A stretch of 64,000 nucleotides of DNA from Eubacteriales bacterium (GCA_045580005.1 JAZNMZ010000061.1:5508-69507), one strand, 5' to 3'; shown: positions 4,271 through 28,525, numbered from the stretch's first letter. The notes: generated by a model from the sequence alone, not told the origin. Program-made: numbers and translations.

Positions 4271-4603
4271 ATGACAAATAAGAACAATAAGATCATTTTT
4301 GGTGTGTGCATCGCTCTCGTTTCTCTGATTGCGGGAGCGGCAGTTATCGGCATTGTAAGTAATCGCGAAGAAGCTACGTCGGATGCCGAAACAACGAATG
4401 CCGAAACAAGTGATACCGTGGATATTCCGAGTATCAAACCGAACGAGAACGAGAGCGGAGCATCCGCTGACCGCCCCGGGGAGCTTACCGTCGATGTTAT
4501 AGGTGCAAACGGTAATAACGAAAGACCCAAAGAGCCGACTATCGAAGGCGAGCCTTTTATCGTGGACGGAAGAAAGGAGGCGGTGACGGATGAAGTGGAG
4601 TAA
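4271..4603 (+). CDS. membrane-anchored low-complexity protein
   Basis: ATG at 4271 follows AAGGT. MTNKNNKIIFGVCIALVSLIAGAAVIGIV is a TM segment, followed by an acidic Ser/Thr/Glu-rich tail. The 3' end overlaps the adhesin start by 14 nt. Confidence 0.45.
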   Translation: MTNKNNKIIFGVCIALVSLIAGAAVIGIVSNREEATSDAETTNAETSDTVDIPSIKPNENESGASADRPGELTVDVIGANGNNERPKEPTIEGEPFIVDGRKEAVTDEVE

Positions 4604-7600
4604 ATTTATATCGGTATTTCTTGTTATCGTTACACTTCTTCCGCTTGTAGCTACCTGCGTTTCAGCAAGCGGATATGCCTTGAAGGTAACGATCTATTAC
4701 AAAAGCGAATCGGGCGATACGCTGGCCTCTACGGTAAGCACAACGATAAACGCCGCCGATTCCAATAAACCCTCTTGGACTTCGCCGAGCATAAGCGGGT
4801 ATTACCTTAAAAACAGTAGCGATGCGGTGGTGACTTACTCGATGCTGACTATTACCTCCTTGCCGACGAACTATATCCGCGAGGGCTCGGCGACATATAC
4901 CGTTTATTATGTTAAGGAAGCATCCAAAACAGTGAATTATGTGTATAACCACAATAACGCTACCGCCGCTCCCTCAAAGACACAGACGGGTAAGATCGGC
5001 GACAGTTATTCGATCACATCGCCTACTATTACCGGCTATACACCGTCGGCGGCGGTCATCTCGGGAACATTTACTTCAACTACCTCAACAAGTGTTGTCA
5101 GGTATGCCGAGAAGTCATATACCGTCTCCTTCAATGCAAACGGAGGAAGCGGCGCTCCATCAAGCGTGAAAAAGTATTACTTTACCACTCTCGTACTGCC
5201 TACGGATACGCCGGTAAGATACGGCTATTCCTTTCTCGGTTGGTCGGGATCAAGTACGGCAACGAGCGCGGGATATTCCCCCGGTGGCTCGTTTACGTTG
5301 AACAGAGATATAACTCTGTATGCGGTCTGGTCTACAAACACCTATGCCGTGACATATAACGGAAACGGAGGAAGCGGTGCACCGTCAACGCAATATAAGC
5401 AATTCAATGTTCCGCTTACCTTGAGTACAAAAGTTCCGACGAGGAGCGGGTATGTATTCAGCGGTTGGGCAAGAAGTGCAACGGGAAGTGTTGCGTTTCA
5501 GCCGGGCGATTCCTACACATCGAATTCAAAGATGAATCTTTACGCGATCTGGACGGCGGCTCCCAAGCAATATACAGTATCGTATAACGCAAACGGCGGT
5601 TCGGGCGCGCCCTCGAGTCAGACAAAGACGGAGGGCGTGGCGCTTACGCTTTCAAGCACCAAACCCACAAGGAGTGGTTACACCTTCCTCGGCTGGGGAA
5701 CAAGCTCAAGCGCAACAGTTGCATCATATTCGGCAGGCGGTACTTACACATCCGATGCAAGTATAACGCTTTATGCTGTATGGAGTAAGATCCCCTCAAC
5801 TTATACCGTTTCATATAATGCGAACGGCGGCTCGGGCGCTCCCTCCTCGCAGACAAAGACCGAAAATGTAACGCTTACTCTTTCGTCCACTAAACCCACA
5901 AGGAGTGGTTATACCTTCCTCGGATGGGGCACAAGCAGTTCGGCAACTACCGCTGCATATTCTGCGGGCGGAAGCTATACGGCCAATGCAAGTATAACCC
6001 TTTATGCCGTATGGAGCAAGAATGTATCATACTATACGGTATCGTATAATGCAAACGGCGGATCAGGTGCGCCATCCGCACAGACCAAGACCGAAAATGT
6101 AACGCTTACTCTTTCGAGCACAAAGCCGACAAGAAGCGGCTATACCTTCCTTGGCTGGAGCTCGAGCAGTTCGGCGACCTCGCCCACATATTATGCGGGC
6201 GGCTCATATACGGCAAACGCAAGCGTGACACTTTATGCCGTTTGGAGTAAGGTACTTTCCACTTATACCGTATCGTATAATGCAAATGGAGGCTCGGGTG
6301 CTCCATCAAGTCAGACAAAGACAGAGGGCGCGGCTCTTACTCTTTCGAGTACCGTCCCAAGTAGGAGCGGCTACACCTTCCTCGGTTGGGGAACGAGCTC
6401 ATCGTCCACCTCGCCCTCTTATTCCGCCGGAGGAAGCTATACCATCGATGCGAGTATTACACTCTATGCTGTATGGAGTAAGAATACTTCGTACTATACC
6501 GTATCTTACAGTTCAAATGGAGGCAGCGGCGCACCTCTGTCGCAGACCAAGACCGAAGATGTACCGCTTACACTTTCAAGCACGAAGCCTACAAGAAGCG
6601 GCTACACCTTTCTCGGTTGGGGAACGAGCAGTTCTGCAACTTCGCCCTCATATTACCCCGGCGGAACTTATACCGCAAATGCAAGTATAACACTATACGC
6701 CGTGTGGAGCAAGGTTCTTTCGACTTATACCGTTTCTTACAATGCCAACGGCGGCTCGGGCGCACCGTCCGCGCAGACAAAGACGGAGGGTGTGGCACTT
6801 ACTCTTTCGAGTACAGTTCCTTTCCGAAGTGGATACTCATTTCTCGGTTGGGGAACAAGTTCATCATCTACCTCGCCTTCATATTCCGCGGGAGGTACTT
6901 ACACTGCCGATGCAAGTATTACGCTTTATGCTGTGTGGAGTAAAAACACTTCGTATTATACCGTTTCCTATAGCGCAAACGGAGGCAGCGGTGCACCGCT
7001 GGCACAGACCAAGACCGAAAATGTGGCGCTCACTCTCTCATCTCAAGAGCCTACAAGATCGGGCTACACTTTCCTCGGTTGGAGTTCGAACAGTTCCGCA
7101 ACCTCGCCTACCTACTACCCCGGAGGCACTTATACCGCAAATGCAAGCATAACCCTTTATGCTGTATGGAGCAAGATACTTTCGACTTATACCATATCGT
7201 ATAACGCCAACGGCGGCTCCGGCGCTCCATCAAGTCAGACAAAGACCGAAGGTGTAGCGCTTACTCTCTCGAGTACGATTCCTTTCCGAAGCGGATACTC
7301 CTTTCTCGGATGGGGAACGAGTTCCTCGTCTACTTCGCCTTCATATTCCGCGGGAGGAAGCTATACTGCCGATGCAAGCATTACCTTCTATGCCGTGTGG
7401 AGCAAGAACAATTCGTATTATACCGTTTCCTACAGCGCAAACGGAGGCAGCGGAGCACCTTTGGCACAGACCAAGACCGAGAATGTAGCGCTCACTCTTT
7501 CAAGCACCACTCCGACAAGAAGCGGTTACACCTTCCTCGGATGGGGAACGAGCAGTTCTTCAACATCGCCGTCCTACTATCCCGGAGGTATTTATACTGC

Positions 7601-10064
7601 AAACGCGAGTATAACACTTTATGCCGTTTGGAGTAAGATACTTTCCACTTATACCGTATCGTATAACGCAAATGGCGGCTCGGGTGCACCTTCAAGTCAG
7701 ACAAAGACCGAAGGTGTAGCTCTTACACTTTCGAGTACAAAGCCTACTCGGAGCGGTTACAGCTTCCTCGGCTGGGGAACAAGCTCGTCATCTACCTCGC
7801 CATCGTATTCATCCGGAGGTACTTATATCGCCGACGCAAGCATAACTCTTTATGCTATATGGAGTAAGAACGCCTCATATTATACCGTTTCCTACAGCGC
7901 AAACGGAGGAAGCGGTGCTCCCTCCGCGCAGACCAAGAACGAAAATGTGGCGCTTACGCTTTCAAGCACCAAGCCGACAAGATCGGGCTATACCTTCCTC
8001 GGTTGGAGCTCGAGCAGTTCCGCAACTTCTCCGACATACTATGCGGGCGGTACTTATACCGCCAATGCAAGCGTAACTCTTTATGCGGTATGGAGCAGAA
8101 ATGTATCATACTATGCGGTAAACTACTATGCAAACGGCGGCAGTGGAGCGCCCGAGGCGCAGGTGAAGATCGAGGATGTCGCGCTTACACTTTCATCGAT
8201 CTCTCCCTACAGAAGCGGATATATCTTTTCCGGTTGGGCAACAAGCTCAACTTCATCTGTTATTTCTTACTATCCCGGAAGCACCTTCAGCGGAAATTAC
8301 AGCCTTGATCTCTATGCGGTATGGCAAAGGAGTCTTGCTTCCTATACCGTAAATTATGATGCAAACGGCGGAAGCGGAGCTCCGTCCTCTCAAACAAAAA
8401 TAGAAGACACAGTGCTGACACTTTCGTCTACCAAGCCTACAAGGAGCGGCTACACCTTCCTCGGTTGGAGCTCGAGCAGTTCGGCAACTTCGCCCACTTA
8501 TTATGCGGGCGGCACCTATACCGCAAATGCAAGCATAACTCTCTATGCGGTATGGTCGCGTATAACTTATACCGTAAGCTATGATGCCAACGGAGGTAGC
8601 GGTGCGCCGTTCTCGCAGATCAAGTATTACGGTCAAGTATTGACCATAAGCAACACAGTCCCAACAAGAGATGGCTATACCTTTCTCGGATGGTCGGAAT
8701 CCTCATCGGCCGCATCGCCCTCATACTATGCGGGCGGTCAGTTCGGAGACGACCGCTCTGTGACCTTATATGCCGTATGGCAGGAGCACAACTACGATTT
8801 TTCAATATCCGCTCTCGAAGTCACTCCCGATACAGTTACACAGTATGAGACCGTCAATATTCGCTTCCGCATAGATAGCTGGGACGAATACAATAACTAT
8901 TCGGATATCCCCGTTGAGGTGCTCTTGAACGGTACCCAAATATATTATACCACCGTGTATATCTACGCTTACGGTGTGAAGTATATAGAATTCAACCTCA
9001 ATGTCGGCGAGATCGAAGGAATGCAGAGTCTTGTTGCGCGAGTGAATTGGGTGGATCACCACAATGAAACAAGAACGGGAAACAACTCGGTTTCCGCAAC
9101 ATTTACCGTTAAGAAAGCTATTGAAACTTCGGTAGATCAGACGGGCTTGAGCGGAGAATACATCGAGGGATTCGATGTCATTTCAAGTTTCTATGTGAGA
9201 AATGAGGGAAGCTCGGATGTTACGCCCGATGACGGAGTTACCTTTACGCTCAAAGTCTACTCTACTGCCGAGACGGTATTTGAGGGAACAAAGACAGTTG
9301 TGATCCCTGCGGGAGGTACAAATATAGTCTATTTCAAATGGACAGTACCCGAAAACAGCGCGGGAACGGTATATTGGTGTCGCGGCACTATATCCGAAAG
9401 TACGGGCGATGGAAACACGGATAATAATTCTACCGAGTTTTCAATAGTATCTGCTTCGCTTCCGAGCTCAACTACACCTAACACAAGATATGAGGAAAAA
9501 GCTCCCGCGACCTATGATCCGATGGTTACGCCTCCTTCCGATAAAGCCGGCTCGGCTTCATGGAATGAGTGGGTATATGAAAATGATTCATTTGTTCTCA
9601 AGACCTACGGCATAACCGTTTCGGGCGGCAATCCTATGCTTACACCGAGTGCAGGATGCAAGACGGCGGTCAAGGACGGAAGTCTGTGGAAGCTCGGTTC
9701 GGGTTACGGTGTATCGCTTTCATGGACACCCGTTATAATCTCATCGGGCGTATCCACACCATCGCGCGATTCATATACCGAGGCTCAATCCGTGTATGCG
9801 ACCTTTCCCGAATATGCATATGTGCTCGCGCAGAATAAATATGACACTCTCGATGATGTCGCAGGAACATTCATGTTCAAGCCCAACCCCGATGCTGACA
9901 ACACCGAAAGAGTACACTTTATACCGCTTTATGTCAAGGACGGACTGTACAGCGTATCTGTTTCCGCATCGTATATCTGGACACCTGCGGGCATGGTCAC
10001 GGCAACTAAAAGTGCATCGGTTATTATACGCGGAACAATGTATGACGATTGGTATCAAGGATGA
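4590..10064 (+). CDS. giant secreted adhesin with Listeria-Bacteroides (Flg_new/InlB-B-type) repeats and C-terminal CARDB-like domains
   Basis: 1824 aa. The RBS AAAGGAGG lies 9 nt upstream and the signal peptide is MKWSKFISVFLVIVTLLPLVATCVSASG. I counted 16 units carrying NGGSGAP...L(T/S)..P.R.GY.F.GW...LYAVW. These are followed by Ig-like/CARDB-like segments, and no LPXTG motif is present. Confidence 0.9.
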   Translation: MKWSKFISVFLVIVTLLPLVATCVSASGYALKVTIYYKSESGDTLASTVSTTINAADSNKPSWTSPSISGYYLKNSSDAVVTYSMLTITSLPTNYIREGSATYTVYYVKEASKTVNYVYNHNNATAAPSKTQTGKIGDSYSITSPTITGYTPSAAVISGTFTSTTSTSVVRYAEKSYTVSFNANGGSGAPSSVKKYYFTTLVLPTDTPVRYGYSFLGWSGSSTATSAGYSPGGSFTLNRDITLYAVWSTNTYAVTYNGNGGSGAPSTQYKQFNVPLTLSTKVPTRSGYVFSGWARSATGSVAFQPGDSYTSNSKMNLYAIWTAAPKQYTVSYNANGGSGAPSSQTKTEGVALTLSSTKPTRSGYTFLGWGTSSSATVASYSAGGTYTSDASITLYAVWSKIPSTYTVSYNANGGSGAPSSQTKTENVTLTLSSTKPTRSGYTFLGWGTSSSATTAAYSAGGSYTANASITLYAVWSKNVSYYTVSYNANGGSGAPSAQTKTENVTLTLSSTKPTRSGYTFLGWSSSSSATSPTYYAGGSYTANASVTLYAVWSKVLSTYTVSYNANGGSGAPSSQTKTEGAALTLSSTVPSRSGYTFLGWGTSSSSTSPSYSAGGSYTIDASITLYAVWSKNTSYYTVSYSSNGGSGAPLSQTKTEDVPLTLSSTKPTRSGYTFLGWGTSSSATSPSYYPGGTYTANASITLYAVWSKVLSTYTVSYNANGGSGAPSAQTKTEGVALTLSSTVPFRSGYSFLGWGTSSSSTSPSYSAGGTYTADASITLYAVWSKNTSYYTVSYSANGGSGAPLAQTKTENVALTLSSQEPTRSGYTFLGWSSNSSATSPTYYPGGTYTANASITLYAVWSKILSTYTISYNANGGSGAPSSQTKTEGVALTLSSTIPFRSGYSFLGWGTSSSSTSPSYSAGGSYTADASITFYAVWSKNNSYYTVSYSANGGSGAPLAQTKTENVALTLSSTTPTRSGYTFLGWGTSSSSTSPSYYPGGIYTANASITLYAVWSKILSTYTVSYNANGGSGAPSSQTKTEGVALTLSSTKPTRSGYSFLGWGTSSSSTSPSYSSGGTYIADASITLYAIWSKNASYYTVSYSANGGSGAPSAQTKNENVALTLSSTKPTRSGYTFLGWSSSSSATSPTYYAGGTYTANASVTLYAVWSRNVSYYAVNYYANGGSGAPEAQVKIEDVALTLSSISPYRSGYIFSGWATSSTSSVISYYPGSTFSGNYSLDLYAVWQRSLASYTVNYDANGGSGAPSSQTKIEDTVLTLSSTKPTRSGYTFLGWSSSSSATSPTYYAGGTYTANASITLYAVWSRITYTVSYDANGGSGAPFSQIKYYGQVLTISNTVPTRDGYTFLGWSESSSAASPSYYAGGQFGDDRSVTLYAVWQEHNYDFSISALEVTPDTVTQYETVNIRFRIDSWDEYNNYSDIPVEVLLNGTQIYYTTVYIYAYGVKYIEFNLNVGEIEGMQSLVARVNWVDHHNETRTGNNSVSATFTVKKAIETSVDQTGLSGEYIEGFDVISSFYVRNEGSSDVTPDDGVTFTLKVYSTAETVFEGTKTVVIPAGGTNIVYFKWTVPENSAGTVYWCRGTISESTGDGNTDNNSTEFSIVSASLPSSTTPNTRYEEKAPATYDPMVTPPSDKAGSASWNEWVYENDSFVLKTYGITVSGGNPMLTPSAGCKTAVKDGSLWKLGSGYGVSLSWTPVIISSGVSTPSRDSYTEAQSVYATFPEYAYVLAQNKYDTLDDVAGTFMFKPNPDADNTERVHFIPLYVKDGLYSVSVSASYIWTPAGMVTATKSASVIIRGTMYDDWYQG
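5113..8785 (+). repeat. in-frame tandem repeat array (unit ~231 nt / 77 aa, with a 462-nt two-unit super-repeat in the centre)
   Basis: 16 units are visible in the translation. Off-frame shadow ORFs recur at multiples of 231 nt, for example 6617 vs 7310 and 6106 vs 7492. Units alternate between an SSQTKTEG/SYSAGG type and an LAQTKTEN/TYYPGG type. Confidence 0.9.
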
Positions 10065-10094
10065 TTTATTGCAAAAGAAAGGAAAAACAAGATA

Positions 10095-10319
10095 ATGGCT
10101 ACTGTACACAACGGACACATTAATATCCTTCGCAAGCTCATTAAGCTCGGGTACACGGATAAGAAAGCGATAACCTCGCTCACTATATACGATGTTCTTA
10201 AGCTCCATCTCTCAAAGGGAGAGATGGAGAGCGTGTGTGAACTCATGGATGCCGTGAGAGATAACGACCTGCTCACATTCTTTATTGACAGCAGAGGAGT
10301 GGAAAGCGATGAAGCTTGA
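10095..10319 (+). CDS. small hypothetical protein
   Basis: 74-aa ORF whose stop overlaps the start of the next ORF. No recognisable motif. Confidence 0.45.
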   Translation: MATVHNGHINILRKLIKLGYTDKKAITSLTIYDVLKLHLSKGEMESVCELMDAVRDNDLLTFFIDSRGVESDEA

Positions 10320-11016
10320 AAGTCTTGCCATTTGGGATGAGAAAGAACTTTTTGAAGAATCCCGCGGATCGGACAAGGGATACAGAGGATATGCAAAATA
10401 TATCTTTGAGGGCGAGGGAATAACCCTCCGCGCAGATCGTATGAAGTTCATATCCATCGAGGAGCAGAGAGAGCTTGAGGAACTTTTTATCTTCCTCAAG
10501 AAGCCCGAGGCGGGATTCCTTCTTCGCAGTCTTGCGGATATGACCGTATGTTGCGAGGACAAAATGAACGATCACATCCCCTATTCATTCGACAGAGAAT
10601 GCTACGGATTCCGCGTTATAGGGGACGGTATTACTTGGTATATCTCCTGCACCGTCTGGAACGAAAGATGTCACTTTACGATTTATGCTTACGGCAGAGA
10701 AGCGATCAGAAAGCATCTTGCCGGAAAGCGCGGACTTCCCGATTTCTGTCACGGTATTTATCCCTTTACGGGCGAGCAGATAACGATCTGTTTTGGGGAG
10801 CGGAGCTTTCTCCGCTTCCCGCAGTTCGGCGGAAATGTAAGTGTGAACGAGCAGAGAGTAAACGAAGAAAATAAGCGCCTCAAGGTGACAAAGGCACAAC
10901 GGTCTGCTATGGAAAACGGCATCATTTACGGTTGGGACACGCCCGCCGCTAAAGTTGAGAATTATGACAGCGAGGGACGTTACTGTCCCGAAGAAAAGGA
11001 GGGAAAAAGAAAGTGA
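10309..11016 (+). CDS. hypothetical conjugative-element protein
   Basis: ATG at 10309 lies 10 nt after GAGGAG (the ORF track starts it at TTG 10285). About 235 aa, Cys/His-containing, with no family recognised. Confidence 0.5.
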   Translation: MKLESLAIWDEKELFEESRGSDKGYRGYAKYIFEGEGITLRADRMKFISIEEQRELEELFIFLKKPEAGFLLRSLADMTVCCEDKMNDHIPYSFDRECYGFRVIGDGITWYISCTVWNERCHFTIYAYGREAIRKHLAGKRGLPDFCHGIYPFTGEQITICFGERSFLRFPQFGGNVSVNEQRVNEENKRLKVTKAQRSAMENGIIYGWDTPAAKVENYDSEGRYCPEEKEGKRK

Positions 11017-11041
11017 AAACGGAAAGGAAAGGTGAAGATAT

Positions 11042-14000
11042 TTGAGAAAAATAGATGTTGTAACCGAGCTTTACAACAGAACATTGAAGGAGCTTACCTC
11101 AAGCCCTCGCGCATGGACGGATTTTCTTCATACTGCGGCGTATCAGTACAAGTATTCGTTTTCGGATCAAGTGCTGATCCATGCACAGCGCCCCGGCGCG
11201 ATAGCCTGCGCGGAGCTTGAGGTGTGGAACAGATTCGGAAGATGGGTAAACAGAGGATCGCATGGCATTGCGCTAATAAGGGAGCGTGGCAGCCGCTCAT
11301 CCCTTACCCATGTTTTCGATCTCAAGGATACACATCACAGAGACGATGTCCCCTTTAACATTTGGGATGCAACTCCCGAAACCTATAGCGATATTTCGGA
11401 AGCACTTGAAAACAGATTCGGACACCTGCCGAAAAGGGACTCATTTGAGAATGCCGTTATCTCTGCCTGCGATAATATCTGCGAGGATAATTATACCGAC
11501 TACTTGGAGAATCTTAAGATGTCCGTCGAGGGCAGTTTTCTTGACGGTTATGACGAAGATAATCTCCGTGTAAATTTTCTGCCCATCCTTAAGTACAGCA
11601 CCGCATATTCGGTACTGACCCGACTCGGATACAGAGGTGAGGACAGCTTGGATAAGGAAGATCTCGCTCCCTTGCGCGAGTTTAACACATCCGATGTTAT
11701 CAACATTCTCGGTACTGCATCTGCCGATCTATCGGAACTTTGCTTGCGAGAGATCGAGCGCACAGTTCGAGCATATGAGAAAAACAAAAATCGCACACTT
11801 GCGGCAAATGAAAATGTGCGGTATAATGATTCCGAAAATTCAAAAAATCATGAAAAAGGAGAAAAAGACAATGAGCATCGAGAAAATGCTGAATTACAAG
11901 GCGGACGGGGAAGTTCTGATCCCCGACCTCAAGCTGCCCGAACAGACGAACTATCCCCTCGGGAAGTACGCGAAAATGAGACTCGAATTTCTCAAGAAGC
12001 ATCGCAGGGGAACTTACACGACGCTCGTGACTCAGGCGAAGCTGAACGAGCATCTTCACGAGATCGAGGAAGCGGCGAAGATGCAGATCTCCGAGAGCAT
12101 ATTACAGATGGCACAGAGCCTTGGCGTGACGGAACAGATGAAAGCGGCAGATCAGATGAAGTGGGTACAGATGATGAGCAGCATCAAGCATTCGGCAGAG
12201 GAGGAAGTTTTGAAGAGCTTGATCTACGCTTGAGCGATGAAGATGACCCTTACTACTATGACGGCAAAGGGGTAGATCCCAAATATCTCGATACAGAAGT
12301 AAAGGGCGACAAACCAATGCCCGACGAGCACACAATGATACTCATATTAAGACACGGTGACTACCTGCGTAAGAGCAAGGAAGAAATCGTGTCTTTTTTG
12401 AATTCCGAAGAAGATGAAGCCAAGCGAGCCGTCTTCGTAAGAAAGGCATATGAGATGGGACTTACGGGCGAGTTTTATCGCCCCGGAACAAAGGAATATC
12501 TCGGTTATCATGTAGAGCCGAGCGGACTTCTTATGTATGAAGGACACTTTTCGAACAATACGACAGAGATCAAATTCACATGGCAGCTTGTAGCCGATCT
12601 CATTCACGCTCTTGCAAAAGACGGTAAGTATCTTGATGAGCCGAAAGAGAAGATATCGCTATCGCCGTCGGAGATTGAAGGTGCATCGCTTAAGATCATC
12701 GAGAAACCCGCCGTCAAAACGCGAAATGAATTCACTTTTCCACAGTCCACCATCGACGAGTTCATCCGTATCGGCGGTTGCACGAGAAAAAGCACGGAGC
12801 GAATTTACGGTTATTACCGCAGAGCAAATGATACCGCGGAGAATATTCAATTTTTGAGAGAAGAATATGAAACCGATAATGTAGGACTTGTCATTGACGG
12901 TCGTAAAATGGCGGCTTCTTGGAATGACGAAGGAGTTACTATCGCCGAGGGCGAGAAAGTGGCCGGTGCTTGGCGAACGGTATTTCTCACTTGGGAGGAT
13001 GTGGACAAACGGACACGCGAGCTCATAGAGCTCGGACAGTATATTTCGAGGGCTCAAGCGCAAACGGCAGAATCTATCTATGATGAGTCTGTAGCAAATA
13101 AGATAGCCGATCTGTATAGATATTATTTTAGTGACTTGCCGGATGAAAATAAAACCGCTTCAAGATTTGTTTGGCCGGAAATAACGGATTTTTATACAGA
13201 TATACTTCATGACTTTGATAAAGCGGAAGCTTTGTGCAATGAAATGGAGCGGAATATTAAAATCAAGGAGTCTCGAAACGCAAAGTATGCAAATATTAAT
13301 TCCCCAAGATATGTTCTGATGTTGGCCCGACAGTATTTGAGGGAGCCTATTGAGTTCAAAGAGGCCGATGAGTATTTATTACCGCAGAAGTTTTATATTA
13401 CTCAAGATAGGATAATGAGCGTTCTTGCGGGACATCATCCGATCAGCGAAGGTAAATTCCGCGTATATTCCTTCTTCCTTAAAAACAAGGATAATAAAAG
13501 CAGGGCGGATTTTTTGAAGAAGGAATACGGCATCGGCGGCAGTTATGACAGCAGAGTGAATAAGGAGTACAACAGCAAGGGACTTTGTATAGGGTATAGC
13601 AGTATTTTTGTAAATGAAAAAGTGCTGCTGAAATGGACTGATGTTGCAAAAAGGATCGATACCCTCATCCGAGAAGATAAATACTTGAGCAAGGAGGAAC
13701 AAAACCTTCTTGATTGGTATGAGAAATGCCAGATCGCAAGTGCTATTCAAGGCTTTTACAGTAATCGCGGAATAGATGTAGAACGTCCGTATAAATATGA
13801 TGACAAAGCATTTTTTGAGGATAAGAGAAAGGAGCTTCTTTCTCAAATAGATGCCCCCGAAAGGCTTGCGGAGATCTACAAAATGATGTGCGATGTTTTT
13901 GAAACAGACACTCCGGATTCATATAACTATAACTATTATAAAGAGTGCTTGAAGGATGTGAGGGAATATGTAGCAGGGACTTACAACTTGTTTCCTTTTT

Positions 14001-17000
14001 CTCATTACCGCAGGAAGGCCGTTGAAAAAGCAGAAGCATCTACGGAGGAAGTCGCTGAAGAAGATCCCGCGATTGACATTGATCTTGACTCGCTTGACTA
14101 TGATATAAGGCTCGGCACATGGGTCTATATAGACAATGATGAGCTTATCATACAGTCTATAACGAGTGAGGGCGTTGAGCTTGATGACGGCTCGATCTTT
14201 CCTGTAGAGCTTTCCTTTGATGAATTTCTTGAAAAGCTCCGCTCCAACCCCAAGAACGATCACTTGAAAAAGAGTGAAAATGTTGAGGTACTCGACGAGC
14301 CCGACCCTTCGAAAGAGAACACCGAGGCGTCCGAAAAGACAGACGAACTTGAAAGAGCAAAGCATCTTATTAACGATTACAGTATGTCTGAATTCGGATA
14401 TGAAGATACCTTTGAAGATCTTCATTCTATCGGTATCGGATATACCACAACAGAGGATGATGAGATATCCATTCAAGTCGAAGCCGACCTCATAGATTTC
14501 AATGTTAAGGTCTATCTCGGCGAAGATCTTGTCGTTACAAGGCAGTACGGATCTCTAAAAGAGCTTAACGATGTTGAACTTGAAAATCTTGATTTTGATT
14601 CTCTTATCTATATTGATGACGAGATCATAGAGGAATACAAGCGGAAACATGTAACTGAAACCGAGATCCCTGCAATGCAGGAAGCACCAAAGCCTATTGC
14701 CAAACGCGCGGGTGTTAAGTTTCATCCCGAGGTGGATGACGAGGACAGACTCGATCACAAGATCGACGCAAAGGATTTACCTTTGCGTGTGCCGAGCGAT
14801 AAATACAGTCGCAATATTCGAGCTATTCGCCTGCTTCATACCCTTGATGAGGAAAACAGACTTGCTACGGAAAGTGAGCAAAAGCTCCTCGCAGATTACA
14901 GCGGATGGGGAGGTCTTGCAAATTGCTTTGATGAAGGTAACTCAAACTATGAGGAGCTTAAGTCGCTTCTTACCTATGAGGAATATAAAGCGGCAAGAGA
15001 ATCGACATTGACTGCATTCTACACACCGCCCGTTGTTATCCAAGCGATATACAAAGCGCTCGCCAATATGGGATTTACTCGAGGCAATATCCTCGAGCCT
15101 TCCTGCGGTGTCGGTAACTTTATGGGACTTTTGCCCGAAAGCATGAGCGAAAGCAGAATATACGGTGTTGAGCTTGACGGTCTTTCGGGTAGGATCGCGC
15201 AACAGCTTTATCAAAAACAAAATATAACCATCGGCGGTTTTGAAGAAACGGTATTTCCCGACAGCTTCTTTGATGTCGCTGTCGGTAATGTTCCTTTCGG
15301 ACAGTTCAAGGTCGGGGATAGGAAGTATGATAAGTTCAACTTCCTTATTCACGACTATTTTTTTGCCAAAGCTCTTGACAAGGTTCGACCGGGCGGAGTA
15401 GTTGCTTTCATAACTTCAAAGGGAACTATGGACAAGGAAAATCCCGCAGTAAGAAAGTATATCGCGCAGAGAGCGGAGCTTATAGGCGCTATTCGCTTGC
15501 CAGACAATGCTTTCAAGAGTGCGGGAACAGAGGTCGTTTCGGATATCATCTTCCTACAAAAGAGAGACAGAGTGATCGAAACCGAGCCCGATTGGGTGCA
15601 TCTCGGTCAAGATGCAAACGGCATACCAATGAATCAATACTTCGTGGATAACCCCGAAATGATACTCGGAGATATTGTTATGCGTTCAGGCCCATACGGC
15701 CCCGAACCGACATGCAAGGCTTACGAAGGGCATGACCTCGGTGAACTCCTTTCGGAAGCAGTAAGCAATATTCATGCCGAAATATCCGAGGCGGATATAG
15801 CCGAGCTTGAAGAAGATCCGAACAGCATTCCCGCTGACCCCAATGTAAAGAACTACTCATACACCATCGTAGATGGCAATGTTTATTTCCGTCAGGACAG
15901 CGTTATGAGTAAGGTCGAAACATCTGTCACGGGAGAGAATCGCATAAAGGGCATGATAGGCATAAGAGACACCGTTCGCGAACTTATCGATGCTCAACTT
16001 AAAGATCTTCCCGATTATACCATAACGGGACTTCGGGAAAAGCTCAATTCACAATACGATGCTTTTACCGCGAAGTACGGCCTTATAAACAGCAGGGGTA
16101 ACGAGTCTGCATTTGAGGATGACAGCTCATATTTCCTCCTTTCCTCGCTTGAAATACTTAACGAAGATAAAGGGCTTGAGCGCAAGGCGGATATGTTCAC
16201 CAAGCGCACGATCAAGCCCTATGTTAAGATCGAACATGTCGATCTCGCGAGTGAAGCGCTCGCGGTATCACTTTCCGAAAAGGCAGGCATAGATATTGAA
16301 TTTATGTCCGTACTTACGGGCAAGACGGAGGATGAAATATATGAGGAGCTTAAGGGCGTTATCTTCCTAAATCCCGAAGAAAGTGCCATTTTGAACAAGC
16401 CTAAATACCTTACCGCCGATGAGTACCTCTCGGGCAATGTTCGCGAAAAACTCGCAAGAGCAAGACGAATGGTAGATGAAGGCTTTGAGGAATATTCGGT
16501 CAATGTAGATGCTCTTGAGGCAATTCAACCCAAAGATCTGACCGCGGCCGAGATCGGTATCAAACTCGGAGCAACATGGATACCACCCGAAATAATAAAG
16601 CAATTCGTGTTTGACCTTTTGTCAACTCCTTCGTGGGCAAGGTGGCACATTGATGTTAAATATCTCCCGCAGACTGCTCAATGGTTCATTACCGAAAAGT
16701 CGAGGGACGACGACAATGTTCGAGCCTTGACCGTTTACGGAACGAGCCGTGTCAACGCATATGAGATCATCGAGGAAACTCTGAATCTCAAAGATGTAAG
16801 GGTACTTGATAAGAAGCTATGCAATGACGGAGTCGAGCGGTATGTATTAAACAAGAAGGAAACCACGGTAGCACAGGGCAAGCAGGAGGAGATCAAACGC
16901 GCCTTTGAGGAGTGGGCGTGGAAAGACCCCGAGAGGCGTGAAAAGCTCTGCAAGCTTTACAATGAAAAGTTCAATTCCACAAGACCGCGTACTTATGACG

Positions 17001-19561
17001 GAAGCCATATAAAATACTTCGGTATGAATCCCGAGATCACGCTTCGCAAGCATCAGACCGACGCCGTAGCGAGAATAATGTACGGCGGAAACACTCTCTT
17101 GGGTCATGTAGTAGGCGCAGGTAAGACCTTTACTATGGTCGCGGCGGCGCAGGAAATGAAGAGACTCGGTCTGTGTAATAAGTCTATGTTTGTTGTTCCG
17201 AATCATCTCATTGAACAATGGGCGGCCGAATATCTCCAACTCTATCCGTCGGCCAATATTCTTGTTGCCACAAAGAAAGACTTTGAGAAGAAGAACCGAA
17301 AGAAGTTCTGCGCAAGGATCGCAACGGGCGATTATGATGCGGTCATCATAGGTCATTCGCAATTTGAAAAGATACCCGTTTCGATCGTAAGACAACAGAG
17401 GATGCTTCGGGAAGAGATCAACGAAATAGTAAAATGTATGTCGGAACTCAAGGGTCAGCGGGGAGAAAGAATTACCGTAAAGGCACTTGAAAGAAGCAAA
17501 AAACAGCTTGAGCATAAGCTTGAAAAGCTAAACGATCAGACTCGAAAGGACAATGTCGTATGTTTCGAGGAACTCGGAGTTGACCGTCTCTTTGTTGATG
17601 AAGCGCACTTCTACAAGAATCTTTTCTGCTACACCAAGATGCGAAATGTATCGGGAATAGCACAGACCGAAGCGCAGAAGTCTGCCGATCTGTATATGAA
17701 GTGCCGCTATCTCGATGAAGTTACGGGTAACAAGGGAGTCATCTTTGCAACGGGAACTCCAATATCCAACTCTATGGTTGAGCTTTATACGATGCAGAGA
17801 TATTTACAGTATGACGAGCTCAAACGGCGAGGTCTTTCGGCATTTGATGCTTGGGCATCCACCTTCGGTGAAACGATCACGGCAATAGAGCTTGCGCCCG
17901 ACGGTAGCGGTTACAGAGCAAAAACGCGCTTTGCGAAGTTCTTCAATATCCCCGAGCTTATGGCAATGTTCAAGCAGGTCGCGGATATCCAAACTGCGGA
18001 TATGCTCGATCTTCCCGTCCCGAAAGCAAATTACGGTATCGTAAAAGTTCCCGCTACGGAGATACAGAAGAAACTTGTGGAGTCGTTTGCAAAGAGAGCG
18101 GAGAAAATCCACAATGGGTTGGTAAGCAGCGATGAGGATAATATGCTTCTTGTCACCAATGACGGCAGAAAAGCCGCGCTCGATCAGCGACTTATAAATC
18201 CTATGTTCGACGATGACGAGAACAGCAAGGTAAACGCTTGCGTTCGAGAGATCTACGAAACATGGAAGAACGGCTCTGAAATGAAGCTGACACAGTTGGT
18301 CTTCTGCGACCAATCCACTCCGAAGAACGACGGGAAGTTCAATGTGTATGATGACATCCGCGAAAAGCTCGTAGCATTGGGTATTCCTCGTGATGAGATA
18401 GTATTCATCCATTCCGCCAAGACCGATGCGCAAAAGAAAGAGCTTTTCAAAAAGGTAAGGGCCGGTCAGGTAAGAATACTTATGGGTTCGACCTTCAAAA
18501 TGGGCGCAGGTACGAATGTGCAAAGGCTCTTGAAGCGGACGCATGACCTTGACTGTCCGTGGAGACCTTCGGATCTCGAACAGAGAGCGGGAAGGATCGT
18601 AAGACAAGGCAATCTCAATCCCGAGGTGGATATTTCGAGATATGTAACAGAGGGAACTTTTGATGCTTATCTGTACCAAATGGTAGAAACGAAGCAGAGA
18701 TTCATATCGCAGATCATGACTTCCAAAGACCCCGTAAGAAGTGCGGAAGATGTCGATGAAACGGCACTCTCCTATGCGGAGATAAAGGCACTTGCAAGCG
18801 GAAATTCCATGATAATAGAGAAGATGCAGCTTGATGCGGATGTTGCAAAGCTCCGTCTCCAAAGGTCTTCTTACAACTCGGGGATCTTCGATCTTCAGGA
18901 CAAGTTAAGCAAGGTGTTCCCCAAGGATATTAAAGAGGAGGAGGCCCGAATTTCGGGCTTGGAGGCGGACATTATAACAGCCCAAGAAAGTACCCATCCA
19001 AACGAAAAAGGCTTCTCTCCGGCCGTTATAATGGGCGTGGAGTACACTGAAAAGGCCGAGGCCGGCAAGAAAATTCTTGAGGTGTGCAAGCGCATCACCA
19101 ACCCAGAGGCAAGACCTCTCGGAGAGTATCGCGGGTTTCAAATGGAGATCGGATTCGATACAGCACAGAAGGAATTCTTCATTAAGCTCATAGGAAAGCT
19201 CCGATATACGATCTCTCTCGGAAACGATGCAAACGGTATCATTCAAAGACTTGACAACGGTATCGGCAGTTTGCAGGGAAGGCTTGAAAAGTGCCGCGAA
19301 GCTCTTGCAGAGCTTCATAAGCAGGTAAAGATAGCAGAGGAGGAGGTAACAAAGCCTTTCCCGCGCGAGGAGGAGCTTAACGAAAAGTTATCTCGCCTCG
19401 ATTATCTCAATTCTCAACTTAATATGGATAGGCGCGAAAATGAGATAGCCGATGAAACTCCCGAACAAGACGGAGCGGACGAAACCGCGCCCGAAGTCAA
19501 CGAAGAACCTACCGAAGAAAGAGAAGACAATGAGCGCGATTATGACCGCGACGAGAGGTGA
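11042..19561 (+). CDS. polyvalent anti-restriction-type protein with ArdC-N-like ssDNA-binding domain, N6-adenine DNA methyltransferase and SNF2/DEAD helicase
   Basis: 2839 aa with a TTG start. The N-terminus carries YSFSDQVLIHAQRPGA..WNRFGRWVNRGSHGIALI (ArdC-N-like). Methyltransferase motif I EPSCGVGNF is at ~15.10 kb and motif IV GNVPFG at ~15.29 kb. Helicase motifs are GAGKTF (~17.12 kb), DEAHFYKN (~17.60 kb) and QRAGRIVRQGN (~18.59 kb). Confidence 0.9.
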   Translation: MRKIDVVTELYNRTLKELTSSPRAWTDFLHTAAYQYKYSFSDQVLIHAQRPGAIACAELEVWNRFGRWVNRGSHGIALIRERGSRSSLTHVFDLKDTHHRDDVPFNIWDATPETYSDISEALENRFGHLPKRDSFENAVISACDNICEDNYTDYLENLKMSVEGSFLDGYDEDNLRVNFLPILKYSTAYSVLTRLGYRGEDSLDKEDLAPLREFNTSDVINILGTASADLSELCLREIERTVRAYEKNKNRTLAANENVRYNDSENSKNHEKGEKDNEHRENAELQGGRGSSDPRPQAARTDELSPREVRENETRISQEASQGNLHDARDSGEAERASSRDRGSGEDADLREHITDGTEPWRDGTDESGRSDEVGTDDEQHQAFGRGGSFEELDLRLSDEDDPYYYDGKGVDPKYLDTEVKGDKPMPDEHTMILILRHGDYLRKSKEEIVSFLNSEEDEAKRAVFVRKAYEMGLTGEFYRPGTKEYLGYHVEPSGLLMYEGHFSNNTTEIKFTWQLVADLIHALAKDGKYLDEPKEKISLSPSEIEGASLKIIEKPAVKTRNEFTFPQSTIDEFIRIGGCTRKSTERIYGYYRRANDTAENIQFLREEYETDNVGLVIDGRKMAASWNDEGVTIAEGEKVAGAWRTVFLTWEDVDKRTRELIELGQYISRAQAQTAESIYDESVANKIADLYRYYFSDLPDENKTASRFVWPEITDFYTDILHDFDKAEALCNEMERNIKIKESRNAKYANINSPRYVLMLARQYLREPIEFKEADEYLLPQKFYITQDRIMSVLAGHHPISEGKFRVYSFFLKNKDNKSRADFLKKEYGIGGSYDSRVNKEYNSKGLCIGYSSIFVNEKVLLKWTDVAKRIDTLIREDKYLSKEEQNLLDWYEKCQIASAIQGFYSNRGIDVERPYKYDDKAFFEDKRKELLSQIDAPERLAEIYKMMCDVFETDTPDSYNYNYYKECLKDVREYVAGTYNLFPFSHYRRKAVEKAEASTEEVAEEDPAIDIDLDSLDYDIRLGTWVYIDNDELIIQSITSEGVELDDGSIFPVELSFDEFLEKLRSNPKNDHLKKSENVEVLDEPDPSKENTEASEKTDELERAKHLINDYSMSEFGYEDTFEDLHSIGIGYTTTEDDEISIQVEADLIDFNVKVYLGEDLVVTRQYGSLKELNDVELENLDFDSLIYIDDEIIEEYKRKHVTETEIPAMQEAPKPIAKRAGVKFHPEVDDEDRLDHKIDAKDLPLRVPSDKYSRNIRAIRLLHTLDEENRLATESEQKLLADYSGWGGLANCFDEGNSNYEELKSLLTYEEYKAARESTLTAFYTPPVVIQAIYKALANMGFTRGNILEPSCGVGNFMGLLPESMSESRIYGVELDGLSGRIAQQLYQKQNITIGGFEETVFPDSFFDVAVGNVPFGQFKVGDRKYDKFNFLIHDYFFAKALDKVRPGGVVAFITSKGTMDKENPAVRKYIAQRAELIGAIRLPDNAFKSAGTEVVSDIIFLQKRDRVIETEPDWVHLGQDANGIPMNQYFVDNPEMILGDIVMRSGPYGPEPTCKAYEGHDLGELLSEAVSNIHAEISEADIAELEEDPNSIPADPNVKNYSYTIVDGNVYFRQDSVMSKVETSVTGENRIKGMIGIRDTVRELIDAQLKDLPDYTITGLREKLNSQYDAFTAKYGLINSRGNESAFEDDSSYFLLSSLEILNEDKGLERKADMFTKRTIKPYVKIEHVDLASEALAVSLSEKAGIDIEFMSVLTGKTEDEIYEELKGVIFLNPEESAILNKPKYLTADEYLSGNVREKLARARRMVDEGFEEYSVNVDALEAIQPKDLTAAEIGIKLGATWIPPEIIKQFVFDLLSTPSWARWHIDVKYLPQTAQWFITEKSRDDDNVRALTVYGTSRVNAYEIIEETLNLKDVRVLDKKLCNDGVERYVLNKKETTVAQGKQEEIKRAFEEWAWKDPERREKLCKLYNEKFNSTRPRTYDGSHIKYFGMNPEITLRKHQTDAVARIMYGGNTLLGHVVGAGKTFTMVAAAQEMKRLGLCNKSMFVVPNHLIEQWAAEYLQLYPSANILVATKKDFEKKNRKKFCARIATGDYDAVIIGHSQFEKIPVSIVRQQRMLREEINEIVKCMSELKGQRGERITVKALERSKKQLEHKLEKLNDQTRKDNVVCFEELGVDRLFVDEAHFYKNLFCYTKMRNVSGIAQTEAQKSADLYMKCRYLDEVTGNKGVIFATGTPISNSMVELYTMQRYLQYDELKRRGLSAFDAWASTFGETITAIELAPDGSGYRAKTRFAKFFNIPELMAMFKQVADIQTADMLDLPVPKANYGIVKVPATEIQKKLVESFAKRAEKIHNGLVSSDEDNMLLVTNDGRKAALDQRLINPMFDDDENSKVNACVREIYETWKNGSEMKLTQLVFCDQSTPKNDGKFNVYDDIREKLVALGIPRDEIVFIHSAKTDAQKKELFKKVRAGQVRILMGSTFKMGAGTNVQRLLKRTHDLDCPWRPSDLEQRAGRIVRQGNLNPEVDISRYVTEGTFDAYLYQMVETKQRFISQIMTSKDPVRSAEDVDETALSYAEIKALASGNSMIIEKMQLDADVAKLRLQRSSYNSGIFDLQDKLSKVFPKDIKEEEARISGLEADIITAQESTHPNEKGFSPAVIMGVEYTEKAEAGKKILEVCKRITNPEARPLGEYRGFQMEIGFDTAQKEFFIKLIGKLRYTISLGNDANGIIQRLDNGIGSLQGRLEKCREALAELHKQVKIAEEEVTKPFPREEELNEKLSRLDYLNSQLNMDRRENEIADETPEQDGADETAPEVNEEPTEEREDNERDYDRDER
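11871..12233 (+). CDS. tnpV: TnpV-like protein encoded in the +1 frame inside the polyvalent ORF
   Basis: 120 aa with ATG 9 nt after AAAGGAG. MSIEKMLNYKADGEVLIPDLKLPEQ..GKYAKMRLEFLKKHRRGTYTTL..LNEHLHEIEEAA..GVTEQMKAADQMKWVQMMSSIKHSAEEEVL..IYA matches my recollection of the TnpV family (Tn4451-type elements) in length and motif order. Identified from memory, not from a search. Confidence 0.6.
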   Translation: MSIEKMLNYKADGEVLIPDLKLPEQTNYPLGKYAKMRLEFLKKHRRGTYTTLVTQAKLNEHLHEIEEAAKMQISESILQMAQSLGVTEQMKAADQMKWVQMMSSIKHSAEEEVLKSLIYA

Positions 19562-21373: not shown

Positions 21374-21805
21374 TTATTGAAAATCATATATCTTAAAGAT
21401 ATCGCCGCTGATATAAAGCACATCGGACATCGGTATCTTTTTCTTATTGGTAAGCGTTATTACGCACTCGACATCGTCGATATCGTGTACGATACCGCGA
21501 ACGGTTACATACTCGCCGCCGCTCTTTTTGGCGTCCGGTTTGAAGTATGTTATCTCGATCTCGGCCTCGCTGTCGAGGTTGGCCTTGATGAATGAGAGCT
21601 TGCTGTTGAGGTTTGCGATCTGCTCCTCGGTGAGCTCGACCTTAACTCCGGTGAGTCTTGCTTCTTCGTTGACAGCGGCATCGTAGCCGGTCAGCGCCGC
21701 AAAGGGAGCAAACTGCGCCGCGCGATTCATGCGCGACATCCGCGGATGCTTTTTTGACTCGTGATGAGGAAGGTCGATTATATCGTTATAATTGCGTTCT
21801 TCCAC
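21374..21805 (-). CDS. yolD: YolD-like protein
   Basis: 143 aa with MSRMNRAAQFAPFAALTGYD, characteristic of YolD. It overlaps the stop of the upstream Y-family polymerase by 1 nt. Confidence 0.8.
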   Translation of the reverse strand: MEERNYNDIIDLPHHESKKHPRMSRMNRAAQFAPFAALTGYDAAVNEEARLTGVKVELTEEQIANLNSKLSFIKANLDSEAEIEITYFKPDAKKSGGEYVTVRGIVHDIDDVECVITLTNKKKIPMSDVLYISGDIFKIYDFQ

Positions 21806-23325
21806 TACTTTTTACCTCCGTCATTTCCCGCCAGATGACCGCCGATCTGTGCGTTACGCTCTTTTGTGGTCGCTCCTTCTTCAAAGTTCATTCCCTTGAG
21901 GATGGCGTTCTTTCCGAACTGCTTTCGAAGCTCTATAATTGTATCTTGCCGCTTTCGCTCACGCGCTAACTCGGCATTTTCCTTATCGCGACGGCGTTCT
22001 ATCGCCTCATAATCGGTGAAGACATCGAGCTGCTCGAAGTCGTTACGATCGTCTTTCGCAAGGCTTTCGTCAACAACTTTACATGCGGTTACATTAACTT
22101 TCCGAATAAGAAGCTTGGGATTGGCGATACGATCAAAGAGCTCGAGAGCTGCCTTTGTGATGAGCTTGGTCGATGATGTTTGTCTGTCAAGATTGATCGT
22201 TCCGTGCGCGGGCTTCGGCGCTTTTCGACCGTAGAAATCGGTTACTATTTCGCCGTTATAGTCGGTATCCGTAAGCGATTCAACATCATAGGTCAGATCG
22301 AGAACTATCTGATTCGTGACGAGCTTTTTTTCAACAAGGTCAAGCACCAAGAGGTCTATCATCTCATGGACTATGAGGCGCGCCTTCTCAAAAGTATAAC
22401 CGTATGAGAGGACTTGTCCCGATGAAATGCTGTTCGACTCGGGCTTGTAGGCCTTAATTTCCGAGATAAGGCAAGGCTCCCATCCCCATGCATGATCGAT
22501 CAAGAGTTCCGCATTCACACCGAAAAGATTGTATAGGATGTCCTCATTAGTCAGCGAAACTCGGGCAACATCGCCCATCGTTTTAATGCCGCGTTCCTCG
22601 AGCTTTTTGGCAATGCCCTTGCCGACTCTCCAAAAGGAAGTAAGCGGAGTATGATTCCATAGCTTCTCTCTGTATGATCGCTCGTCAAGCTCCGCGATAC
22701 GGACTCCGTCCTTGTCCGCGGGCATCTTTTTTGCCATAATATCCATCGCGATCTTCGCAAGATAAAGGTTAGTTCCTATACCTGCGGTCGCGGTTATTCC
22801 CGTAGTTTTGAGGACATCGCGTATCATACGCAGAGCAAGCTCGTGAGCGGTGCATTTATACTTTCTCAAATAGCTTGTGGCATCAATAAAGACCTCGTCT
22901 ATTGAGTAAACATGAATGTCATCGGGAGCTATATATTTGAGATAAACGCTGTATATCTTCGTGCTTATCTCCATATATTTCGCCATCTGCGGCGGCGCAA
23001 CGATATATGAGACGGCAAGAGACGGATCGCTTTTCAGCGCTGTATCGCTGTAGGACTCACCGGTAAGGACACGGCCAGGAGCATGGCTTCGCCTTTGTGC
23101 ATTGGCCTCTTTGACCTTTTGAACGACTTCAAAAAGCCGCGCTCTGCCGGGGATGCCGTAGGATTTCAGCGACGGCGAGACCGCAAGACAAATGGTTTTT
23201 TCAGTTCTCGAAGAATCCGCCACCACAAGATTTGTGGTCATCGGATCAAGTCCGCGCTCCATACATTCAACGGAAGCATAGAACGACTTCAGGTCTATTG
23301 CAATATATCTTCTGTTTTCGTTCAT
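21805..23325 (-). CDS. Y-family (UmuC/DinB/ImpB-type) translesion DNA polymerase
   Basis: 506 aa. The N-terminal YIAIDLKSFYASVE is the catalytic motif of Y-family polymerases, and the classic pairing with YolD is present. Confidence 0.9.
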   Translation of the reverse strand: MNENRRYIAIDLKSFYASVECMERGLDPMTTNLVVADSSRTEKTICLAVSPSLKSYGIPGRARLFEVVQKVKEANAQRRSHAPGRVLTGESYSDTALKSDPSLAVSYIVAPPQMAKYMEISTKIYSVYLKYIAPDDIHVYSIDEVFIDATSYLRKYKCTAHELALRMIRDVLKTTGITATAGIGTNLYLAKIAMDIMAKKMPADKDGVRIAELDERSYREKLWNHTPLTSFWRVGKGIAKKLEERGIKTMGDVARVSLTNEDILYNLFGVNAELLIDHAWGWEPCLISEIKAYKPESNSISSGQVLSYGYTFEKARLIVHEMIDLLVLDLVEKKLVTNQIVLDLTYDVESLTDTDYNGEIVTDFYGRKAPKPAHGTINLDRQTSSTKLITKAALELFDRIANPKLLIRKVNVTACKVVDESLAKDDRNDFEQLDVFTDYEAIERRRDKENAELARERKRQDTIIELRKQFGKNAILKGMNFEEGATTKERNAQIGGHLAGNDGGKK

Positions 23326-28328: not shown

Positions 28329-28525
28329 TGGAGAAGAGCGAAAGAAAAGTAGTCGTGCTTACAGACTATGAGTACCATGTTATGATAGGTGCGCTTGCGG
28401 AATTCCGCAACGATCTTCTCGAGGAAAACAGAGAGCCGCATGATGTAAGCGAGCTGCTTCTCAAGGTCATTGATGCTCCCGTTGTAGAGAACGGCAAGGG
28501 CAGATTTTTCAGGGGAAGCCGATGA
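28328..28525 (+). CDS. small hypothetical protein upstream of the coupling protein
   Basis: 65 aa. Start and stop overlap the flanking genes (ATAATG and ATGA). Confidence 0.5.
   Translation: MEKSERKVVVLTDYEYHVMIGALAEFRNDLLEENREPHDVSELLLKVIDAPVVENGKGRFFRGSR

Follow-up and report, generated by a model that had tools for sequence, protein, structure and literature searches.

We begin with a 64,000-nt stretch of DNA from a Eubacteriales bacterium (GCA_045580005.1 JAZNMZ010000061.1:5508-69507), referred to below as the window, and with two genes that overlap in it on the + strand. The larger is a giant polyvalent-type open reading frame (ORF) that runs from 11042 to 19561 (+), encodes 2839 amino acids (aa) and starts at a TTG codon, with GGAAAGGAAAGGTGAAG just upstream. 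The smaller is a tnpV gene (11871-12233, +) that lies wholly inside the giant ORF in its +1 frame and encodes a 120-aa protein, from an ATG at 11871 to a TGA at 12231-12233. A Shine-Dalgarno sequence that belongs to the small gene, AAAGGAG, can be read at 11855-11861 (+), 9 nt before the ATG. The giant frame passes through the same 363 nt without a stop, and the protein that it encodes there is NEHRENAELQGGRGSSDPRPQAARTDELSPREV...DEVGTDDEQHQAFGRGGSFEELDLRL. An initial annotation of the window had described a complete gene with its own ribosome binding site and a giant frame that reads straight through it; the coordinates, the ATG, the TGA and the AAAGGAG are all reproduced in our analysis, and the open giant frame is confirmed by translation.

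The small protein had been proposed to belong to the TnpV family, and a Pfam search supports this assignment: PF14198 matches with E=1.4e-36 and 125.3 bits against a cut-off of 27, and the full length of the profile (positions 1-111 of 111) aligns with residues 8-118 of the protein. PHROG 24764, a family without an assigned function, also matches (E=1.6e-34), and no model in NCBIfam matches TnpV. The size and the mobile setting are those of a TnpV as well, with 120 aa, its own Shine-Dalgarno sequence, ATG and TGA, and conjugation genes in the window.

The giant protein, by order, consists of an ArdC-like N-terminal domain, a disordered linker, unassigned domains, an adenine-methylase-like region and an SNF2/ResIII helicase, all encoded on the + strand. 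AlphaFold2 was run on residues 1-533. The model starts with a folded N-terminal domain (aa 1-254, 11042-11803) in which the predicted local distance difference test (pLDDT) score is about 80 or more throughout and above 90 in most 10-residue blocks. It is followed by a predicted disordered linker (aa 255-422, 11804-12307), with a pLDDT of about 32 and no secondary structure, and then by the next folded domain (aa 423-533, 12308-12640), which has mixed helices and strands with a pLDDT of mostly 82-92 and for which no Pfam or PHROG match was found. The tnpV overlap corresponds to aa 277-397 of the giant protein and is entirely within the predicted disordered linker; this segment is rich in R, D, E, G and S. 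The aa 423-533 domain is missing in P0048 and similar relatives, yet the tnpV overlap is kept in them.

The top matches of the N-terminal domain in the PDB, as found by Foldseek, are structures of ArdC from plasmid R388: 6i89 (E=2.1e-3, probability 1.0, with a TM-score of 0.46 normalised to the target) and 6sna. In the N-terminal 273 aa there is no Pfam match to ArdcN at E<=0.1, and a 50-sequence profile of the domain finds nothing among the PDB sequences. The ArdC-like N-terminal part that the initial annotation had named is supported only at the level of the fold, and not by Pfam or by the profile search. Farther downstream, the Eco57I-like N6-adenine methylase signature (PF07669; aa 1406-1484, 15257-15493) has E=2.6e-4 and 21.6 bits, just under the cut-off of 25.3, and one relative (L081) carries PF02384 (N6_Mtase). 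The helicase core with Helicase_C (aa 1999-2523, 17036-18610) is matched by PF04851 (ResIII), PF00176 (SNF2-rel_dom) and PF00271 (Helicase_C), each above its cut-off. A methylase and SWI2/SNF2 dyad is therefore present in one giant polypeptide on a conjugative element, the Eco57I match being sub-threshold. Polyvalent proteins of conjugative elements have been described as carrying an ArdC-N header and a methylase-SNF2 dyad (Iyer et al. 2017, PMC5512222). Because of its helicase, its methylase signature, its ArdC-like fold and the conjugation genes around it, the giant ORF resembles these proteins and fits their class. TnpV, overlapping frames and frameshifts are unmentioned in that survey (PMC5512222), and a gene within a linker is outside the architecture that it describes.

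How far does the nested layout extend beyond the window? A scan of GTDB with one genome per species gives at least 573 relatives of the N-terminal region, of which the 80 best-matching loci were retained. IMG/VR was scanned as well, with TnpV as the starting point, and gives 80 loci, with tnpV nested in 29 and standalone in 51. The nested loci used below number 109, which are 77 GTDB and window loci and 32 further nested loci. In every one of the 80 species-level loci a TnpV homologue (37-64% identity) is found +1 to the N-domain, and the part downstream of it is back in the frame of the N-domain; the giant frame is continuous across tnpV in 79 of the 80. The sole exception is a locus of Desulfosporosinus sp. 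Tol-M (L044, JQID01000103.1), in which the N-domain has a stop at about 4141 and tnpV is intact. The carriers are Lachnospiraceae, Oscillospiraceae, Ruminococcus, Erysipelotrichia (Holdemania), Bacilli, Selenomonadaceae, Dehalobacter and Desulfosporosinus, and the 80 loci include cultured isolates and complete genomes (AP025576, CP148031, CP181263). The same layout is seen in the 29 IMG/VR loci, in one Monoglobus record and in one Enterococcus faecalis plasmid. Each nested IMG/VR copy is accompanied by the N-domain in the -1 frame, and that frame forms a long ORF without a stop; near the standalone copies the N-domain is absent. Among the 109 nested loci the identity of TnpV goes down to 33%. 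Taken together, the nested layout is kept across more than 100 lineages in several classes of Bacillota.

This breadth bears on the suggestion, made in the initial annotation, that a sequencing or assembly indel in the window hides what are really three genes, an ArdC-like gene, tnpV and a methylase-helicase gene. Single-base indel variants do occur in metagenome assemblies, and related NCBI records show a free 'TnpV protein' with a large gene that begins 1.9-2.9 kb downstream. The layout and the frame relation are, however, identical in 80 of 80 independent species-level assemblies, isolates and complete genomes included, and the gaps in the NCBI records are a choice of annotation, since the giant frame is open through tnpV in the records concerned. 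In NZ_OY725736.1 (L082), where a 'TnpV protein' is annotated and the SNF2 gene is begun 1.9 kb downstream, the giant frame meets no stop between 5151 and the end of the locus (beyond 12344), which makes more than 2397 codons. In GCA_017632155.1 JAGBRZ010000240.1 (L167) the giant ORF covers 8175-17306 with 3043 codons, of which the annotation drops about 1,360. What is omitted in these two annotations is the ArdC-like domain and about 1,000-1,360 codons of open giant ORF. Standalone tnpV genes, moreover, carry 1-10 stops in the corresponding frame. We regard a hidden indel as virtually impossible.

All 109 nested loci have a giant frame that is free of stops over tnpV, so the search for such stops among homologues, which had been put forward as a possible refutation, finds none; the homologous part of the TnpV frame is likewise uninterrupted in all 77 GTDB and window loci. 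A resampling, in which the TnpV protein was fixed and its synonymous codons were redrawn from the codon usage of the flanks, leads to an expectation of 7.1 giant-frame stops per sequence. Only 0.04% of the resamples are stop-free, as against 77 of the 77 observed loci. For comparison, the standalone tnpV genes (n=51) have 1-10 stops in the matching (-1) frame, with a mean of 4.5. That both frames are kept open, which the initial annotation had taken from the window only as a hint, is thus borne out by the relatives. Its codon counts are exact: 14 codons of the TnpV frame end in T, 40 of the 120 start with AA, AG or GA, no codon of the first kind is followed by one of the second, and the naive p is 0.0034. 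Its remark that the overlap is rich in CGA and CGT arginine codons holds for CGA, which makes up 8/16 of the arginine codons in the overlap and 23/161 elsewhere, and does not hold for CGT (2/16 and 15/161), which shows no notable enrichment; arginine itself has a share of 13.2% in the overlap and 5.9% in the remaining giant gene. A related observation concerns the third frame of the + strand, which has about 13-15 stops per nested locus and about 7.5 in standalone tnpV. Clearing stops from one alternative frame seems to push stops into the other.

The same counts can be set against the possibility that the large protein is not one chain at all, that the N-domain and the downstream part are separate products, and that the open frame between them is tolerated and not used. 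This would agree with the gene models of PGAP, in which the downstream gene starts internally, and with the L081 locus, where the N-domain is frameshifted in the assembly and the giant frame is still open across tnpV. An unused frame, on the other hand, should hold about 7 stops according to the resampling, or about 4.5 according to standalone tnpV, and it holds none in 109 loci. The N-domain and the downstream part always share a frame, and L081 is one recent deletion away from a canonical locus. Separate products are in our opinion very unlikely.

If both frames are held open, what is preserved in each of them? Frame-specific constraint, another check that had been called for, was measured with an OLGenie-style count on 18 phylogenetically independent pairs, with 95% bootstrap intervals. 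The omega of TnpV is 0.24 (0.18-0.28), and that of the giant frame within the overlap is 0.96 (0.75-1.17). The proportion of sites changed is 0.048 for sites that are nonsynonymous in TnpV and synonymous in the giant frame, 0.192 for sites that are synonymous in TnpV and nonsynonymous in the giant frame, and 0.046 for sites that are nonsynonymous in both; in the flanks the synonymous proportion (pS) is 0.227 and the nonsynonymous proportion (pN) is 0.037. Changes that alter TnpV and are silent in the giant frame are therefore found at 0.21 of the flank synonymous rate, and changes that are silent in TnpV and alter the giant protein are found at 0.85 of it. Binned counts over all pairs agree with the result from the 18 pairs. 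The identity by codon position also follows the TnpV frame, with 0.62, 0.69 and 0.48 at positions 1, 2 and 3, and consequently the third position of the giant frame is the most conserved one of that frame.

These results establish that TnpV is under purifying selection and that the giant-frame sequence of the overlap is approximately neutral. No purifying selection on the amino acids of the giant frame is detected in the overlap, only the avoidance of stops. It follows from the omega values and the frame pattern that motifs of the giant protein in the overlap (e.g., VG.DDEQ..GG) are a shadow of the conservation of TnpV. Two of the explanations that the initial annotation had listed apart, true overprinting and a captured tnpV whose out-of-frame reading is a linker, prove to be a single explanation, given the two omega values and the predicted disorder.

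The substitution counts also allow us to weigh the opposite case, in which tnpV was captured once and is now only linker-coding DNA, with the TnpV frame untranslated and its resemblance to the family fading. The clear maintenance of the giant frame over the overlap is compatible with this, as is the fact that some annotations hold the giant gene alone. An example is the E. faecalis plasmid NZ_CP119161.1, where the annotation is the opposite of that in L082 and L167: the large gene is called and tnpV is omitted. A relic should not behave as TnpV does, however. Changes that alter TnpV and are silent in the giant frame are purged like nonsynonymous changes in the flanks (0.048, to be compared with a pN of 0.037 and a pS of 0.227); the TnpV frame is stop-free in 77 loci and forms ORFs of 113-153 aa in the other 32; and the start codon, the Shine-Dalgarno sequence and the length are kept among copies that are 37-64% identical. 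Even the divergent Enterococcus copy still matches the full Pfam model with E=1.5e-18. The chance that TnpV is a relic is slim indeed. On the E. faecalis plasmid (L083), the nested copy is located at 5995-6336, in the unannotated +1 frame of a CDS (5373-11678) that is annotated as a 2101-aa SNF2-related protein. This plasmid is mobilisable (MobP2 relaxase), and its host is tractable.

We now turn to the start of tnpV. Of the 109 nested loci, 101 have a Shine-Dalgarno core 3-13 nt ahead of the ATG, most commonly GAAAGGAG at a distance of 8 nt, and 95 contain GAAAGG or AAAGGAG. The nested ORFs have lengths of 113-153 aa with a median of 117. The leader RNA of tnpV is A-rich and unstructured (single-sequence z=+0.65), no conserved pairs were obtained around the Shine-Dalgarno sequence and the ATG when RNAalifold was applied to the nested loci, and a search of Rfam near the tnpV start has no matches. 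On the + strand, no promoter-like site was found between the giant start and tnpV. Three antisense ORFs in this region (11700-12059, 11548-11796 and 12102-12335) are without family matches and are treated as chance ORFs.

An ORF scan of the window shows that the +1 frame relative to the giant ORF is open from 11637 to 12233, which places an open stretch upstream of the ATG (11637-11870, +). This stretch is unconserved and most likely untranslated in the tnpV frame. It had nevertheless led the initial annotation to consider a +1 frameshift product. Programmed +1 frameshifting or slippage would give an N-domain::TnpV fusion of about 390 aa, either alongside free TnpV or in place of it. The window agrees with this to the extent that its tnpV frame is open for 252 nt before the ATG, and there are 13 catalogue proteins of 368-399 aa that join the N-domain with PF14198 (P0018, P0027, P0071, P0082, P0086, P0092, P0094-96, P0099, P0105-6 and P0109). 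The related loci tell otherwise. Their upstream opening has a median of 39 nt and is 0-3 nt in eight of them, where the tnpV-frame stop either abuts the ATG (L013, L014, L047) or lies 3 nt before it (five others). A frameshift product is contradicted by the stops, which 44 of 77 loci have within 39 nt upstream of the ATG, by the lack of a conserved shift site where a Shine-Dalgarno core and ATG are kept in 101 of 109 loci, and by the absence of an Rfam element or a conserved RNA structure.

The fusion proteins themselves also argue against frameshifting. Those of L081, L164 and L165 come from different single-base deletions, at alignment columns 744, 897 and 707; L081 shares 97% identity with the canonically framed L089 and differs from it by one lost G, and the contig with the L165 fusion has a coverage of 0.77x. 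Programmed frameshifting is thus highly improbable here. Two candidates were rejected: a clade of N-domain::TnpV fusions, since the three loci examined each have their own single-base deletion, and a -1 slip site, GAAAAAAGG in L081 (6733-6750), which is merely the G lost with respect to L089. P0018, P0027 and P0071 change frame at still other points. By sequence comparison, the apparent fusions are best read as sporadic indels, either errors or recent mutations, and they all come to about 390 aa because both frames are open. A different case is L166 (ERZ922498 scaffold_123499, gene 1177-2316; P0094), in which, owing to a larger deletion, the N-domain continues in frame into a TnpV part that lacks about the first 12 residues, the Shine-Dalgarno sequence and the ATG. 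P0092 and P0095 are similar to P0094 in size, and the three may be a small lineage of true fusions or assembly artefacts.

Genes with programmed frameshifts, such as dnaX, prfB and those of the IS3-family transposases, are a useful reference here. Their products share an N-terminus, and they need a conserved shift site (PMC5009743). The present locus is like them in that two frames lie over one stretch of mRNA and two products are probably made. It differs from them in that tnpV has no conserved shift site, stops upstream of it are common, and it has initiation signals of its own.

The conserved Shine-Dalgarno sequence and ATG, the absence of a promoter-like site and the upstream stops in the tnpV frame point to internal initiation on the giant mRNA rather than to frameshifting. 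Combining these with the results above, we consider it highly probable that the two genes are a true same-strand nested pair, with tnpV translated by internal initiation and the giant frame serving as a stop-free linker. Ribosomes starting at 11042 would read through tnpV and make a charged, intrinsically disordered linker, which would join the ArdC-like N-domain to the rest of the methylase-helicase polyvalent protein. Other ribosomes would start with the Shine-Dalgarno sequence at 11855-11861 and the ATG at 11871 to give a free TnpV of 120 aa. Selection would keep the amino acids of TnpV, and the giant frame would be kept free of stops, and nothing more, by synonymous choice in tnpV. Both products are presumably made, and initiation at 11871 is presumably independent of the translation of the giant ORF.

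Several points weigh against this nested pair and have to be kept in mind. The case for internal initiation is built from sequence signals; in 8 of the 109 nested loci no clear Shine-Dalgarno core precedes the ATG that was chosen, and in L055 there is no ATG near the start of TnpV homology. The 80 species-level loci are the best matches to a query that contains the read-through frame, a subset of the at least 573 relatives with the distant ones outside it. TnpV is modelled by AlphaFold2 with a pLDDT of 89 as a beta-hairpin followed by helices, and Foldseek finds no relatives of this fold in the PDB at E<2 or in BFVD at E<1.9. Finally, in a neighbour-joining tree of 148 TnpV proteins the nested copies do not come out as one clade, though TnpV is too short for the tree to decide between a single and a repeated origin.

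Which of the two readings is the older? Since tnpV also exists as a standalone family, the reading of the linker is probably the younger layer. Most likely, as far as the family distribution tells, the linker of the giant gene is the newer, overprinted reading, and not tnpV. A more specific scenario, which is possible and to us rather doubtful, is that two genes flanking a standalone tnpV were fused through its -1 frame, and that TnpV is now a dedicated partner of the polyvalent protein. The ArdC-like header would descend from the upstream gene and the methylase-helicase from the downstream one, with the linker overprinted on a gene older than itself, contrary to the direction of classic overprinting. 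TnpV could then act, for example, as an adaptor or chaperone for the delivery of the polyvalent protein or for its action on incoming DNA, and its synthesis would be set by the ribosome traffic on the giant ORF.

The nested pair can be compared with known systems. In the Rz/Rz1 spanin genes of phage lambda, the embedded gene has a start of its own and occupies the +1 frame of a larger gene on the same strand, and the two products come from one mRNA through independent initiation. The likeness to tnpV is in the small embedded gene, the start of its own, the +1 frame on the same strand and the two products that one mRNA would give. In Rz/Rz1, however, the proteins of the two frames are both constrained and interact with each other, and the embedded gene is lineage-specific, whereas the embedded TnpV belongs to an independent, widespread family that is also found standalone, the frame around it is that of an unconstrained disordered linker (omega 0.96, pLDDT about 32), and TnpV is not known to interact with the giant protein. 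A second system is comS within srfAB of Bacillus subtilis, a small protein encoded out of frame in a giant multidomain gene. It is again on the same strand and out of frame, and its expression is tied to the transcription of the giant gene, as that of tnpV would be. ComS has 46 aa, is known from a single lineage and overlaps a catalytic domain of the nonribosomal peptide synthetase; tnpV encodes 120 aa of a Pfam family, overlaps an inter-domain linker only and is found in at least 100 species-level lineages. The present pair differs from both systems in its probably older, independently occurring embedded family, its unconstrained host linker and its spread over more than 100 lineages. The third comparison is with standalone tnpV of mobilisable transposons of the Tn4451/Tn4453 type and related elements (PMC3158075), which has the same PF14198, about 115-130 aa and its own Shine-Dalgarno sequence and ATG, and always occurs on mobile DNA. 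Standalone copies are flanked by other genes and carry 1-10 stops in their -1 frame; a nested copy is enclosed by a polyvalent gene, and its -1 frame is stop-free.

When prokaryote annotations contain long co-directional overlaps, these are as a rule spurious in the judgement of an earlier study (bioRxiv 10.1101/724807); well-supported long overlaps on the same strand are rare in bacteria. We found no earlier description in the literature of a tnpV nested in a polyvalent gene. A full nesting of 363 nt, supported by a curated protein family, by stop avoidance, by frame-specific selection and by conservation in more than 100 lineages, is a clean natural model of frame sharing, in which one frame bears all of the amino-acid constraint and the other is a disordered linker that needs only to be open. 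It suggests that entire genes can be concealed in, or engulfed by, the linkers of giant multidomain proteins. The layout also has a practical consequence, as public annotation of it is wrong in two ways: either tnpV is called with a shortened large gene, or the large gene is called without tnpV. Metagenome catalogues contain, in addition, chimeric proteins of about 390 aa.

What TnpV does can be approached from its setting. An older suggestion, quoted in PMC3158075, is that TnpV has a role like that of lambda Xis, as an accessory in excision. This was considered and is unsupported, as no Xis or winged-helix fold is among the Foldseek matches in the PDB and BFVD. A TnpV profile searched against the PDB sequences has no significant match either, the best having E=0.052. 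We infer that TnpV acts in the transfer or establishment of the element, since it is strictly linked to mobile DNA and has a constant place behind the ArdC-like header. The nested layout ties TnpV, which is common on mobile elements that carry resistance, to the machinery of anti-restriction and establishment, and gives a setting for functional tests.

The window as a whole is part of a conjugative element of the Firmicutes type. It encodes a MobA/VirD2 relaxase (25138-26514), a coupling protein of the type IV secretion system (28522-30375), a VirB4-like ATPase (32693-35014) and a cell-wall amidase (44217-47177), and a T2SSE-type ATPase is encoded upstream of the giant ORF. Also upstream of the giant ORF is a surface protein of 1824 aa (4590-10064), with about 16 Listeria-Bacteroides repeats and a MucBP domain; large surface proteins of the SpaA or Flg_new type are found at the equivalent position in L081, L082, L164 and L167. 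On the other strand, the window has a gene for a Y-family (ImpB/UmuC-type) DNA polymerase (21805-23325, -) and one for a BlaR1-type M56 peptidase sensor (50424-52025, -), both of which are possibly cargo of the element.

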